Positions 1,736 through 7,657 of a stretch of DNA of 8,514 bases are shown piece by piece. Location: IMG/VR virus record IMGVR_UViG_2703718829_000003; one strand, given 5' to 3'. This stretch comes from a virus. Lineage: Duplodnaviria > Heunggongvirae > Uroviricota > Caudoviricetes. The translations under genes and the position numbers were made by a program. Each line of letters starts with the position of its first letter. Position 1 is the first letter of the stretch. The notes beneath the pieces are model-generated. The model ran no database searches, was not told where the DNA came from, and saw only the letters and a list, made by a program, of their open reading frames with translations.

Positions 1736-1765
1736 TTGACTCGCTTTTTTGTCATGGCGTATCGT
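1736..1765 (+). promoter_or_regulatory. Candidate sigma70 promoter for the small-ORF/primase/integrase operon, abutted by a 10-bp palindrome
   Basis: -35-like TTGACT (1736-1741), 18-bp spacer, -10-like TATCGT (1760-1765). The perfect palindrome GCAATATTGC (1726-1735) sits directly upstream and could be an operator. Assigned by eye only. Confidence 0.3.
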
Positions 1766-1835
1766 TTGCCCGCACCTCATAAAGCGGGTGCCGGGTTTAG
1801 CAGCCTGATTGACAAAGCGGGTAGCCGCTATATTT

Positions 1836-1914
1836 CCGTAATGCGGTTTTTTTGTGCCCGTAATACCACCCTTTCCCGTATTATGGCGGGGCGTAATGGG
1901 GAGGCCGTAAGGCC
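1836..1914 (+). repeat. Five direct CGTAAT-like heptamer repeats in the untranslated leader, ending in a GNRA-type hairpin
   Basis: CCGTAAT (1836-1842), CCGTAAT (1858-1864), CCGTATT (1876-1882), GCGTAAT (1891-1897), CCGTAAG (1905-1911). The last copy lies inside GGCC-GTAA-GGCC (1903-1914), a 4-bp stem with a GUAA tetraloop. A second hairpin follows (CTGGT 1917-1921 / ACCAG 1931-1935). Confidence 0.4.
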
Positions 1915-2017
1915 TGCTGGTTTCTTTGTCACCAGTCTGCTAACCCTGTTACGTCCCGCCACCATGTTTAGCAGCGTGCTGGCGAGACTCCGTAAATTAG
2001 ACAAAGGAGCCGCCAAA

Positions 2018-2772: not shown

Positions 2773-2839
2773 TTCCCGAATTGTCCACTGATAACTGAAT
2801 TCAATTTATATTTCGGCCTTAACTGGCCGGGGAGTTTTT

Positions 2840-3145
2840 ATGTCTGAAAATCAGAATGTCCGCAATATATACAAAAAAGAATACGCTGGCTTTTTCACAG
2901 AAGATTCCATTGGCAGTCTTGAGGATGTAATAAATGTTATTGCTCTTTTTTCAGCATTGACAGGTGAAATTAATACCAAAGAGCGAATTGCTGTACAAAG
3001 CGATGAAATGGAATCATTAACTAACATTCTTTATCGGGAATTACGAGCGATTAAATCAGGAATGCATCTTTCTGGCGGGATTTTTTCATGGCACAAAGCT
3101 GAAGCCGCAGGGATTGCCCGGAAACAAGAAGTAACGAGTAATTAA
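2840..3145 (+). CDS. Hypothetical protein, 101 aa; visibly more AT-rich than its neighbours
   Basis: GGGGAG (2829-2834) upstream of the ATG at 2840; clean ORF to TAA 3143-3145. By position, immediately upstream of the primase, it is analogous to the small accessory genes that precede alpha in P4-type left operons, but no sequence-level identification was possible. Confidence 0.55.
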   Translation: MSENQNVRNIYKKEYAGFFTEDSIGSLEDVINVIALFSALTGEINTKERIAVQSDEMESLTNILYRELRAIKSGMHLSGGIFSWHKAEAAGIARKQEVTSN

Positions 3146-3151
3146 TAAAAA

Positions 3152-3181
3152 CCCCACTGCAAAAGGTGCAGTGGGGGGGGG
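3152..3181 (+). promoter_or_regulatory. Perfect 10-bp-stem hairpin overlapping the primase ribosome-binding site, followed by a G9 homopolymer
   Basis: CCCCACTGCA (3152-3161), loop AAAGG, TGCAGTGGGG (3167-3176). The G-run 3173-3181 (9 G) forms the 3' half of the stem and the only purine-rich Shine-Dalgarno candidate, 8 nt before the ATG at 3190. Confidence 0.45.
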
Positions 3182-3189
3182 ATTTATAT

Positions 3190-5859
3190 ATGAAACATAA
3201 CACCAGAAAAGAGATTATTAACCGTCTTATTCGTGATTACAACTTTAAAGAAGAAAATAACTATCTTCGTTATGGTGTTTGTCCGCAATGTGGAAAGAAG
3301 GAACTGTTTACCAGTCTTGAGAGGCCGTACATCGTACACTGTGGCCGCGAAAATAAATGCGGTGCAGACCTGTTGACCAAAGAACTTTACCCGGATGTGT
3401 TTTCGTCATGGTCAGATCGCTATATCAGCACGAAAGACGATCCATACGCAGCGGCGGCAGCTTATCTTCAGGAAGCGCGCAATATTGCTGTGGAGCCACT
3501 GAAAGGGGCATTTACTCAGGAGCGATACCAGGACAAGGAAAGCGGCGAACAAGCCGCTACCGTGCGTTTTACGCTGGCTGACGGCGTGTGGTGGGAGCGC
3601 ATCATAGACCGACCGGAACGCTTCGCTCGCAAGGCGAATTTTTCCGGCAGCTACAAGGGGCTGTGGTGGGCTTATCCGGGAGCTGATTTAAGCAAGGCCA
3701 AAGAAATCTGGATTTGTGAGGGTGTCTTTGATGCCATCAGCCTTAACCAGAATGGCATTGCGGCCGTTTCTGTCATGTCTGCCGTGAACTACCCTGATAA
3801 GGCGCTGGAAGAACTGGCGAAGCTGTGCGGAGATAATCCCCGTCCGGTTATTGTGTGGGCGCTGGATAACGGGCGTGCGGGTGAGCGTTACGCGAAAAAA
3901 CATGCAGAACGCAGCGCCGAAGGCGGCTGGAGAACGGCAGCGGCGTTACCGGGTGAAAACAACAATAAACGCGACTGGAATGATTTACACATCGCCGGAA
4001 AGCTACGTGGCCATGATGTGAAAAGATACCGTTATTACGGTGATTTATTGCTGGCGAAATCTCCGAGAGATAAGGCACTAATAATGTTTTCCTTTCGTGA
4101 GCGAAAGGAATTTCATTTTCCCTTTGATAACCGTGTGTTCTGGTTCAAGCTGGATATTGAGCGCCATATGAAGGCTGTTGAGCGTGTCATTAATGAGCGA
4201 AATGTTGACGAAGATGAAGCGCGCAAAATTGCACTCAAGGAATCCGGCGCTGTAAAAGAAATCGCAAACTGTAACCCAGTGCCGCTTTATTACATTCGAA
4301 ACAATGATACGGATGAAGCATGGTATTACTTCCGCATTACATTCCCGGATGGTGCTACGGTGAAAAACACCTTTACATCAGGGCAATTAACATCCGCATC
4401 TGAATTTAAAAAACGTCTGTTGCACGTAGCAAAAGGCGGCATTTATACCGGAACGACTACGCAACTTGACGCATTAATAAAAAATGACCTTCCCGCAATA
4501 AAAGAGGTTATTGGTCAGGATTTTATCGGATACAACAAGGCCATTGGGGCATGGTTGTTTAATGATATTGCTGTTTACAAGGGTAAAACTTATGAAATCA
4601 ATGACGAAGATTATTTTGAAATTGATGGCATAAACGCAAAACCATTAAGCGAAAAACCCACATTACAGATTAACTACAAAAAACCGGATGAATTTACAAC
4701 GTCATGGGTGGAAGATCTCTGGCTGGCTTTTGGCGAAAAGGGAATTATTACCCTGGCTTTCTGGCTGGGTTCGCTGTTCAGTGAACAAATCCGGGATAAA
4801 GAAGAATCCTTCCCCTTCCTTGAAGTCACCGGGGAGCCCGGAACGGGTAAATCAACATTGATTGATTTTTGCTGGCGGCTGTGCGGTCGTGACAACTATG
4901 AAGGCGTAGATCCAACCAAAGGATCAGAGGCGGGCTGGAAGCGCACCTTTGGACAGGTCGCCGGATTACCTGTTGTTCTGATTGAAGCGGACCGGGGAGA
5001 CAATGCGCAAAAAAGAGGTGCGTTTGACTTCGATAACCTGAAAAGTCTCTATAACGGCGGTGGTATCGGCGTTCGTGGTGTTAAGGCCAACAATAACAAC
5101 ACCTATGACCCGGATTTTAAGGGCGCTATCGTAATTGCGCAGAATGCGCGGGTAAACGCCTCGCCGGCAATTATCGAGCGCCTGATACGTATATACACCG
5201 ATAAAAAACGCCATTCACCTGATACCCGACTGGCGGCGAGACGACTGGAACTCTACCCCGTCGAGAAGGTATCGGGGTTTATTCATCGGGCGGTAAGTCA
5301 GGAACGGGCGATTATGCAAACGTTCCTGGAAGTGTCGCCGGCTGAAACGGAACGCCTTTGCGGATGCGAAAATATTCGCCATCCCCGTATCGCCAAAAAT
5401 CACGCGCAACTTATCGCGCTGGTCAGGGCGCTTAAATGCGTTATTGATATCCCGGCTGAATGGCTTGATGCCACATGTCTGGAACTGGAACAAATGGCAA
5501 CAGCGCAGGTTAAAGCGGCGGCGGCTGATTTACCGGAAGTGGTGGAGTTCTGGGAAGCGTTCGACTTCCTGGACGGCATAACAAAATACGGTGTAAACCA
5601 CTACGGCAAGGGATGCTGCGAAGGGATTGCTATCAGTATTCCGCAACTGGCACAGGCAGCCGCCATTCACCGCGTGGAGATCCGAACCGATCGCGAAATG
5701 ATTGAGTTGCTCGGGGCTGGACGCTCCCGACCGTTGACAGGTCGTAAAACAATTCGTAGTGAGGTGTCCAGACAGGCAAACGCCGGAAAAGGGGTAGCCG
5801 AGGCCAGAGAGCCGGAAGTACTGAAATGCCGGATATTCAGTTACAAGGAGGGGCGTTAA
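3190..5859 (+). CDS. Bifunctional DNA primase / helicase replication protein (Zn-ribbon + TOPRIM primase domain, C-terminal P-loop helicase-type NTPase; P4 alpha-like), 889 aa
   Basis: N-terminal zinc-ribbon CPQCGKK...HCGRENKCG; TOPRIM-type acidic motifs ICEGVFDAISL and VWALDNGRAGERYA; Walker A VTGEPGTGKSTLID (nt 4831-4857) and Walker B-like VVLIEADRG. First ATG in frame is at 3190; the ORF-track start at 3166 is a GTG inside the upstream hairpin. Confidence 0.9.
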   Translation: MKHNTRKEIINRLIRDYNFKEENNYLRYGVCPQCGKKELFTSLERPYIVHCGRENKCGADLLTKELYPDVFSSWSDRYISTKDDPYAAAAAYLQEARNIAVEPLKGAFTQERYQDKESGEQAATVRFTLADGVWWERIIDRPERFARKANFSGSYKGLWWAYPGADLSKAKEIWICEGVFDAISLNQNGIAAVSVMSAVNYPDKALEELAKLCGDNPRPVIVWALDNGRAGERYAKKHAERSAEGGWRTAAALPGENNNKRDWNDLHIAGKLRGHDVKRYRYYGDLLLAKSPRDKALIMFSFRERKEFHFPFDNRVFWFKLDIERHMKAVERVINERNVDEDEARKIALKESGAVKEIANCNPVPLYYIRNNDTDEAWYYFRITFPDGATVKNTFTSGQLTSASEFKKRLLHVAKGGIYTGTTTQLDALIKNDLPAIKEVIGQDFIGYNKAIGAWLFNDIAVYKGKTYEINDEDYFEIDGINAKPLSEKPTLQINYKKPDEFTTSWVEDLWLAFGEKGIITLAFWLGSLFSEQIRDKEESFPFLEVTGEPGTGKSTLIDFCWRLCGRDNYEGVDPTKGSEAGWKRTFGQVAGLPVVLIEADRGDNAQKRGAFDFDNLKSLYNGGGIGVRGVKANNNNTYDPDFKGAIVIAQNARVNASPAIIERLIRIYTDKKRHSPDTRLAARRLELYPVEKVSGFIHRAVSQERAIMQTFLEVSPAETERLCGCENIRHPRIAKNHAQLIALVRALKCVIDIPAEWLDATCLELEQMATAQVKAAAADLPEVVEFWEAFDFLDGITKYGVNHYGKGCCEGIAISIPQLAQAAAIHRVEIRTDREMIELLGAGRSRPLTGRKTIRSEVSRQANAGKGVAEAREPEVLKCRIFSYKEGR

Positions 5860-6921: not shown

Positions 6922-7117
6922 GTTGGCCAGAACCAACGGTAACAGCAATGCAATGGTGGTCATATTGCAGTAGTGCCGCCATCAATTTTTTGCTTCCCCT
7001 GATTATCAGAAAGAGTCAAACAGTGGCGAGATACATTTCAATCACAGAGAGTTAATGAGAGTGATACAGAGTAAGTGGGTTTAATTAACATTTTAAAGGG
7101 TCGCGCTAAAGTTTGGG

Positions 7118-7431
7118 GGGGGGTGCGCAAAGCGGTTACAACGGTTACAAATTTAAAATCACTTATTTTTGCATTATATATCAATACATTATAACTGGTC
7201 GGATGAGTTACAAAAGCGGTTACAACGCGGTTACATGTAACCGTTTTGTTAGGTTACAGGCGGTTACAGGTTAAGTTTTTAATTGATTGATAATAAAGTG
7301 CTTTTTGAAACCTGTAACCGTTGTAACCGCAGTGTAACCGCAAAGCGGTTACAAACAATATCCATTAAAATCATGCTGTTAAGTGGTGTTTTTGACTGTT
7401 GTAACCGTTGTAACCGCTTTGCGCACCCCCC
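7118..7431. repeat. Iteron array (at least 13 copies of CGGTTACA / TGTAACCG) bounded by a perfect 33-bp inverted repeat; putative origin of replication
   Basis: The inverted-repeat arms 7118-7150 and 7399-7431 are exact reverse complements (GGGGGGTGCGCAAAGCGGTTACAACGGTTACAA). Octamer copies in + orientation begin near 7133, 7142, 7217, 7228, 7252 (GGTTACA only), 7261 and 7346; in inverted orientation at 7236, 7313, 7322, 7333, 7400 and 7409. A 16-bp perfect palindrome CGGTTACATGTAACCG lies at 7228-7243. AT-rich spacers separate the clusters. Confidence 0.5.
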
Positions 7432-7657
7432 ACCGGATTATGAGGCAGAGCCCCAAAACAACTGGCCTGACCTCTAACAAAAATGCAACATCAATCATTG
7501 ATTTTTTGGGGCTGTCAGTCACGGGGAGTTGCCCTGTTGTTTGGCAGAAAAATGAAGTATGTACATGCGCGGCGGGGATGGTAAAAAACGTAATACACGC
7601 GGCGCAGTTGCCATAAAAAATCTCTCAAAAGCACTCTTTTTGACGCTATTGTTCATC

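Follow-up and report, generated by a model that had tools for sequence, protein, structure and literature searches.

Just ahead of the primase gene in an 8,514-nucleotide (nt) stretch of Caudoviricetes DNA (IMG/VR record IMGVR_UViG_2703718829_000003; the whole stretch is here called the window) is a perfect stem-loop at positions 3152–3176, and this hairpin, the strand on which it could act as a terminator and the G-run into which it passes are the subject here. Over the stretch that was queried, 2780–3480, the window shares 100% identity with an island in the chromosome of E. coli KD602. The plus-strand open reading frame (ORF) before the hairpin, ORF101 (2840..3145; no family match, RefSeq hypothetical protein WP_032084634), has its stop codon TAA at 3143–3145, and the hairpin begins 6 nt further on. 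An A-tract of the ATAAAAA type, TAATAAAAA on the plus strand (3143..3151), leads up to the stem. The 5′ arm, CCCCACTGCA (3152–3161), the loop, AAAGG (3162–3166), and the 3′ arm, TGCAGTGGGG (3167–3176), give a stem of 10 base pairs (bp), seven of them GC, with a hairpin stability of about −18.5 kcal/mol. The 3′ arm runs into a plus-strand G9 homopolymer (3173–3181), of which the first four Gs close the stem and the last five are free; the spacer ATTTATAT follows, and then the ATG at 3190, 13 nt from the end of the stem. A first-pass annotation of this DNA had placed a perfect stem and a G9 run at these positions before the primase ATG, and the sequence bears this out.

The gene so introduced (3190..5859, plus strand) encodes a primase/helicase of 889 amino acids (Toprim_2, E = 1.8e-12, DUF5906-like; phrog_1139 ‘DNA primase’, E = 7e-296). 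ATG 3190 is its true start, and RefSeq uses the same ATG in every length variant of the G-tract. GTG 3166, the start in a mechanical ORF call, lies in the hairpin loop and 3′ arm and is in frame with ATG 3190 only at G9; it was rejected.

The hairpin is non-random, though of a familiar kind. The plus-strand fold of 3130–3215 has a stability of −20.1 kcal/mol (z = −3.67), the stem is its minimum-energy structure, and none of 200 shuffles was as stable. No other perfect hairpin of at least 10 bp is found in the window, and only 15 of 300 whole-window dinucleotide shuffles contained one. A dispersed repeat (of the repetitive extragenic palindrome or miniature inverted-repeat transposable element kind) was considered and rejected: in metagenome and IMG/VR contigs the 25-nt hairpin sequence was found only in the same context (5 + 5 loci).

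Conservation and orientation of the hairpin

A scan with the primase N-terminus, taking one genome per species, gave 63 loci. All enterobacterial relatives at 56–58% protein identity have a GC-rich hairpin that ends 10–14 nt before the primase ATG (Klebsiella, as K. indica, Enterobacter, as E. hormaechei, Yersinia, Pectobacterium, Samsonia, Xenorhabdus, Providencia, Proteus and Arsenophonus). No sequence relation is seen among the stems (GCGCCG/CGGCGC, GCACACAA/TTGTGTGC, GCAC/GTGC and, in an E. coli variant, C7TGTA/TACAG7), and the relatives’ folds are mostly far below those of shuffled controls (z −1.9 to −4.4, one Arsenophonus locus excepted). Of the six pairs nearest the stem base, counted by hand, four are altered on both sides with pairing kept. 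Alignment of ten hairpin regions with MAFFT, followed by RNAalifold, predicted no pairs, the stems being too dissimilar to align. That stems have been replaced with pairing, GC-richness, position and A-tract all retained argues for selection on the structure. The genes upstream of it are co-directional yet non-homologous between genera; as they are swapped and the hairpin stays, the hairpin is tied to the primase gene. Neither hairpin nor A-tract was present at this place in Halomonas, Dyella, sphingomonads and other non-enterobacterial relatives. P4, phiCTX and Escherichia phage ESSI2_ev239 are without a comparable hairpin ahead of the primase gene (phiCTX and ESSI2_ev239 also lack the A-tract), so the feature is not general to P4 or to this primase family.

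What accompanies the stem differs between the two strands. An ATAAAAA-type A-tract (A5–7) adjoins its 5′ side in 11 of 12 lineage variants, and on the minus strand the window’s A-tract is a T/U-tract, TTTTTATTA, following the stem. On the minus strand the 8 nt next after the stem contain 6–7 T in 11 of the 12 variants, with scores of 3.8–5.0 (for the window, TTTTTATT, 7 of 8 T and a score of 4.5). The plus-strand tails contain 2–5 T and score 0.14–3.8; that of the window, GGGGGATT, has 2 T in 8, none of them in the first 6, and is at the bottom of this range with 0.14. In a consensus scan of all 8.5 kb the highest-ranking terminator-like site was 3176..3152 plus TTTTTATTAA, read on the minus strand, and the fold on that strand reaches −23.8 kcal/mol (z = −5.8). 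Both features expected of an intrinsic terminator, a GC-rich stem of about 5–14 bp with a short loop and a T-tract 0–2 nt from the stem, are found there. Judged by its sequence, then, the canonical intrinsic terminator (a GC-rich stem with UUUUUAUU directly after it) is on the minus strand, against the direction of the primase gene. On the sense strand the stem is followed by GGGGG, which would form the most stable RNA:DNA hybrid possible, so that, from the mechanism of intrinsic termination, sense-strand termination is not expected. The weak terminator or attenuator that the first-pass annotation had envisaged after the upstream small ORFs finds no support in the window, where the stem is followed by a T-poor tail.

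The reading we favour, with a probability of roughly 0.45, is that a conserved Rho-independent-type terminator faces the minus strand at the 5′ end of the primase gene, most likely ending antisense transcription. It shares with known intrinsic terminators the GC-rich stem of 5–11 bp, the short loop, the T/U-run immediately after the stem on the minus strand and the A-run on the opposite side; Pectobacterium, Yersinia and Arsenophonus relatives, being T/A-rich on both sides, also resemble bidirectional terminators. It is unlike them in lying between co-directional genes and facing against them, with no annotated minus-strand gene ending there, and in that a sense-strand U-tract is in the window replaced by the GGGGG of a Shine-Dalgarno element. 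For a minus-strand transcription unit that could end here, there is no annotated or conserved ORF, but a promoter-like site lies 38 nt upstream of the stem.

An element of the sense strand is a rather unlikely alternative. The hairpin would be intercistronic, either a leaky terminator or attenuator, or a stability or processing element for the 3′ end of the small-ORF mRNA or the 5′ end of the primase mRNA, with primase made at a level below that of the upstream genes. (The analogy for such an arrangement is the rpsU-dnaG-rpoD operon, whose terminator T1, ahead of dnaG, lowers primase relative to the upstream gene.) Its position 6 nt past the ORF101 stop and ahead of the Shine-Dalgarno element would suit this, as would the T3–5 right after the stem in Pectobacterium, Yersinia and Arsenophonus, the only relatives with such a sense-side run, which make the structure look bidirectional there. 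It is also like the arrangement before ORF101, where hairpin, GGGAG, TTTTT and ATG follow one another (2811–2832). However, a sense U-tract is missing from the window and from Providencia and Xenorhabdus (GGGGGAUU, UCUAAGGU; scores 0.14–1.5), the lineage-wide feature is the 5′ A-tract, for which a sense terminator or 3′ stabiliser has no need, and the hairpin goes with the primase gene, not with the genes whose mRNA it would serve, which differ.

That the hairpin has no present function, being a relic bidirectional terminator or a recombination junction at a module boundary with the G-run a neutral accident, is improbable. It draws on breakpoints of several E. coli relatives, whose matches begin inside the hairpin (~3169), and on the lack of such a hairpin in P4, phiCTX and ESSI2_ev239, but complete replacement of stems with their pairing, GC-richness, position and A-tract kept across genera at 56–58% protein identity is not what a relic would be expected to show.

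Homology with several E. coli relatives starts abruptly, either at window position ~3021 or within the hairpin, and one E. coli variant has another hairpin together with another upstream ORF. From these sequence comparisons the hairpin appears to mark a mosaic or recombination junction.

A candidate antisense RNA

If the hairpin is a minus-strand terminator, the transcript that it would end has a candidate promoter. The promoter-like site on the minus strand at 3214..3242, within primase codons 9–18, is a consensus match with −35 TTGTAA (3242..3237), a 17-nt spacer and −10 AATAAT (3219..3214), and is the only one of its strand near the terminator. With a simple −35/−10 weight matrix applied in 120-nt bins to the first 2.3 kb of the primase gene, the E. 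coli site beats every other bin. At the homologous position the −10 is TATAAT in K. indica, Yersinia and Pectobacterium, TACAAT in E. hormaechei and GATAAT in Arsenophonus; the relatives’ −35 is TGGAAx or TTGGAA, and the −10 ends at ATG+24 or +27. Nine genera were scanned, and six of them, E. coli included, have the site conserved in position; in four of these six it is top-scoring (E. coli, K. indica, E. hormaechei and Pectobacterium); for Yersinia and one Arsenophonus locus 6% of bins are equal or better. Ten hairpin-less lineages were tested and the site was absent in all; three of them are enterobacterial with a similar peptide motif, and have Val-Val replacing Ile-Ile at the −10 codons.

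The hairpin structure with its conservation and covariation, the asymmetry of the T-tract between the strands and the polymorphic G-tract are observed; promoter activity, an antisense RNA and its regulatory effect are inferred. Antisense transcription would start just inside the primase ORF (codons 6–9) and end at the minus-strand hairpin, giving a countertranscript of about 60 nt. With the start set about 7 nt after the −10, at 3207, the predicted RNA (3207..3144, minus strand, about 60–65 nt) would carry a small hairpin at its 5′ end and, after a C9 linker, the terminator hairpin with its U-tract; its fold has −23.8 kcal/mol (z = −5.5). By the geometry of this predicted RNA it overlaps the Shine-Dalgarno element and start codon of its target and ends at a terminator, being complementary to primase codons 1–6, the AUG (3190–3192) and the G-run (3173–3181). 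Its pairing there could hold down primase translation and island replication, and the terminator could also stop antisense transcripts from entering the upstream immunity and regulatory module. The sense mRNA would form the same stem with its Shine-Dalgarno element and AUG free, and would not be terminated, GGGGG coming next. The 5′ stem-loop of the predicted RNA is found in E. coli and Pectobacterium and not in Yersinia or Klebsiella, and was not used as evidence. Such a transcript would be non-coding, as there is no conserved antisense ORF; the small one at 3339..3184 (minus strand, 51 amino acids, ending 7 nt before the stem), open in E. coli, has stops in other genera and was discarded.

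Countertranscripts in cis block several replication and regulatory genes, with RNA I of ColE2 acting on the Rep primase, RNA II of pMV158 on repB, CopA in R1 and sar of P22 on ant. The predicted anatomy is like theirs in having a promoter inside the 5′ end of the target, an RNA of 50–70 nt over the Shine-Dalgarno sequence and AUG, a strong terminator, and a replication initiator or primase as target. It is unlike them in that the RNA here is only predicted, the promoter is a consensus match in coding sequence, and there is neither sequence relation nor an Rfam match. It is proposed, as a tentative and somewhat doubtful extension of the minus-strand terminator, that a family of P4-like islands of enterobacteria whose primase is phiCTX-type regulates primase translation, and through it replication, by such a countertranscript of about 60 nt, and that in one E. 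coli lineage the Shine-Dalgarno/anti-Shine-Dalgarno segment has turned into a hypermutable G/C homopolymer which tunes the Shine-Dalgarno element.

Several points weigh against the terminator with its antisense transcript. The A-tract overlaps the region of the ORF101 stop codon, so that its composition may be due in part to something else. The promoter match is weak (9/12), and the window contains 15 promoter-like matches where 13.5 are expected, which is no excess. The −10 and −35 are in codons for a conserved peptide, EIIxRLIxDY/F, so that conservation of the site may be a by-product of coding, and co-occurrence of promoter and hairpin is phylogenetically confounded. In the Providencia/Proteus/Xenorhabdus clade the terminator is kept with no promoter-like site nearby. 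Among 19 E. coli haplotypes synonymous diversity over the first 110 codons is 0.04 for codons 1–10, 0.10 for 11–20 and 0.11–0.15 elsewhere, with codons 61–70 equally low and the search anchor having forced identity in codons 6–14. At E ≤ 1 Rfam has no family at the hairpin locus (3100–3260), the sole window matches being isrK, C4 and c4-a1b1 at 1759–1966.

In the literature searched, neither a regulatory hairpin nor an antisense RNA was found described for the primase genes of satellites. The control known in such elements is by CI/C4 RNA immunity and by proteins such as Cnr. If the antisense RNA is real, plasmid-style countertranscript control of primase is to be added for phage satellites and islands, and there would be a simple handle on island replication, as one synonymous change in the −10 should abolish the RNA. 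If it is not real, it would still matter for annotation that the hairpin is probably neither a sense terminator nor a translational lock, and that the G-run is a polymorphic, non-coding Shine-Dalgarno variant.

The G-tract and its length variation

The free GGGGG (3177..3181, plus strand), 8 nt before the ATG, corresponds by homology to TGGAG in relatives. The G-run is the one purine-rich element in the interval from stem to ATG, which agrees with its earlier designation as the only Shine-Dalgarno candidate. The free GGGGG has the complementarity to the 3′ end of 16S rRNA, 5–9 nt from the start, by which a Shine-Dalgarno sequence is recognised: its pairing with CCUCC (one G·U) amounts to −8.4 kcal/mol with a spacer of 7–8 nt, and for the GGAG variants of relatives the computed values are −5.6 to −6.1 kcal/mol. 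In other genera the primase ATG is preceded at the matching distance by GGAG or AAGG, from which it follows that the five free Gs stand where the Shine-Dalgarno sequence does. The same hairpin recurs in further E. coli copies with other tails (TGGAG-TTTTATAT-ATG; GAGGGA-ATTTATAT-ATG), and one E. coli variant has a different hairpin, C9TGTA-TTTTT-TACAG7, followed by AGAGGA-TTTATAT-ATG. The homopolymer does not seem to be required, E. coli copies with GGGGTGGAG, with GGGGGAGGGA or with a different hairpin being known. On sequence grounds G9 appears to be derived from the GGGGTGGAG of the family (GGGG-T-GG-A-G) by the changes T>G and A>G. Runs of at least G7 in the window are limited to 3173–3181 and 7115–7123 (6 overlapping G7 matches, 0.85 expected).

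It had been proposed that the stem sequesters the primase start region and so throttles translation. Just G3173–3176 are in the stem, with an unpaired probability of about 0; the other Gs and the AUG are outside it, and the probability of being unpaired is about 45–72% for G3177–3181 and 77–86% for the AUG. According to the folding model, the primase Shine-Dalgarno element and AUG are not sequestered, being predominantly unpaired at every tract length tested.

For E. coli islands that share at least 99.7% identity across 700 nt, tract length was taken from the sequences and, for some, from match length. G8 is found in JP538, P13-6 and Z1323HEC0399 (match length only), and also in STEC388, whose flank identity is 98.4%; G9 in KD602, mip270_22, Escherichia sp. 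MOD1-EC7003 and one IMG/VR contig; G10 in mip270_05; and G11 in STEC384 and STEC379 (match length only). Among more diverged copies G8 prevails, and one metagenome contig also has it. Sister assemblies differ by a single base (mip270_22 versus mip270_05; ETEC6333 versus ETEC6334), and these differences could be either real slippage or long-read homopolymer error.

The other G9 tract, at 7115..7123 (plus strand), is in the left inverted-repeat arm of an origin-like region, as the first-pass annotation had it, and forms the outer end of that arm. JP538, STEC379, P13-6, Z1323HEC0399 and KD602 give 100% identical 161-nt matches over it; the two mip270 assemblies alone have G10, and more distant copies have G8A or G7A. 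Assembly error alone would not be expected to affect just the first tract, and since the second is unchanged in these genomes, variation of the first is probably at least in part real. The earlier warning that such runs are prone to sequencing error may hold for the sister assemblies and probably does not account for all of the variation. By these comparisons the tract at 3173–3181 seems hypermutable.

In the same genomes the two G9 tracts are unlike, the first taking lengths of 8–11 and the second staying at 9. Hairpin adjacency, transcription or selection might explain this contrast.

From G8 to G11 the number of free Gs goes from 4 to 7 and the computed anti-Shine-Dalgarno pairing from −5.5 to −10.0 kcal/mol, while the distance from the 3′ end of the tract to the AUG is a constant 8 nt. 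As the tract is outside the ORF, the ATG is the same throughout, the 3′ spacing is fixed and GTG 3166 is in frame only at G9, there is no on/off switch. The predicted role of G9 is thus as four stem-closing Gs and a G5 Shine-Dalgarno element which slips between G8 and G11, and by the pairing model tract length tunes Shine-Dalgarno strength at most. Of the slippage hypothesis of the first-pass annotation the length polymorphism among related islands stands, but the switch in expression does not. The comparison is with the contingency loci of Neisseria and Haemophilus, where homopolymeric tracts mediate phase variation. Like these, the tract is polymorphic (G8–G11) among near-identical copies; unlike them, it lies outside any ORF or promoter spacer, its length affects neither frame nor Shine-Dalgarno–AUG spacing, and relatives do without a homopolymer. 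That the hairpin occludes the primase start and tract slippage switches the replication genes as a phase-variable contingency locus is therefore very improbable: the greater variability of this tract than of the second, the nearness of the stem to the Shine-Dalgarno element within the ribosome footprint and the span of pairing energies speak for it, but neither the Shine-Dalgarno Gs nor the AUG belong to the stem and both are for the most part unpaired at all lengths, frame and spacing do not change, sister lineages manage with GGGGTGGAG, GGGGGAGGGA or another hairpin, and some of the sister-assembly differences may be errors. For annotation, differences in G-run length between assemblies should not be counted as frameshifts or as phase variation.

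The island and its other features

The origin-like region is at 7115..7434 and has inverted-repeat arms at 7115–7150 and 7399–7434 (36 nt, 97% complementary) that enclose 13 GGTTACA iterons, 7 on the plus strand and 6 on the minus strand. The left arm begins with G9, and C6AC2 is found in the right arm.

The KD602 island is flanked by gcd and hpt. On the plus strand of the window, an AlpA-type regulator (1149–1469) is followed by an Icd-like ORF (1664–2191) within which are an isrK-like leader RNA (1772–1853, plus strand, Rfam 52 bits) and a C4/CI-type antisense RNA (1879–1966, plus strand, Rfam 80 bits). The stretch 1759–1966 (plus) constitutes an RNA immunity module of the P1/P4 type; the a1b1 target (c4-a1b1) is a weak match at 1759–1811 within the same ORF, and a promoter-like site, TTGACT-18-TATCGT, lies at 1736–1765 (plus). 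Four small plus-strand ORFs are between the Icd-like ORF and ORF101. Before ORF101 (2811–2842, plus) there is a second hairpin, CGGCC..GGCCG, then GGGAGTTTTTATG, with a layout of hairpin, Shine-Dalgarno sequence, T-run and ATG; its T-run is on the sense strand, with none on the minus strand. After the primase gene come, on the plus strand, a second integrase, the iteron cluster and an Ogr/Delta gene.

By its sequence the island is P4-like with a primase of the phiCTX/RSY1/Smp131 family; phrog_1139 is common to the P2-like phages phiCTX, RSY1 and Smp131 and to Escherichia phage ESSI2_ev239. The island is like the P4 left operon (CI RNA immunity, alpha primase) in having an AlpA-type regulator, a C4/CI-like RNA with isrK-like leader, small ORFs and then primase, an iteron origin and Ogr/Delta. 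It differs in that the gap between ORF106 and alpha in P4 is 14 nt without a hairpin, and in that its primase is of phrog_1139 (phiCTX-type) and not P4 alpha. The KD602 island has two integrases, Ogr/Delta, a ‘P2 family phage major capsid protein’ preceded by an ORF of 236 amino acids, and a MazEF pair. Such content is unusual in a P4-like satellite, and may mark the element as either a capsid-encoding satellite or else a P2-like prophage in reduced form.

In E. coli E94 and E92 an IS903B is inserted exactly at the primase start, right after GGGGTGGAGTTTTATAT, and splits the hairpin and Shine-Dalgarno element from the gene.

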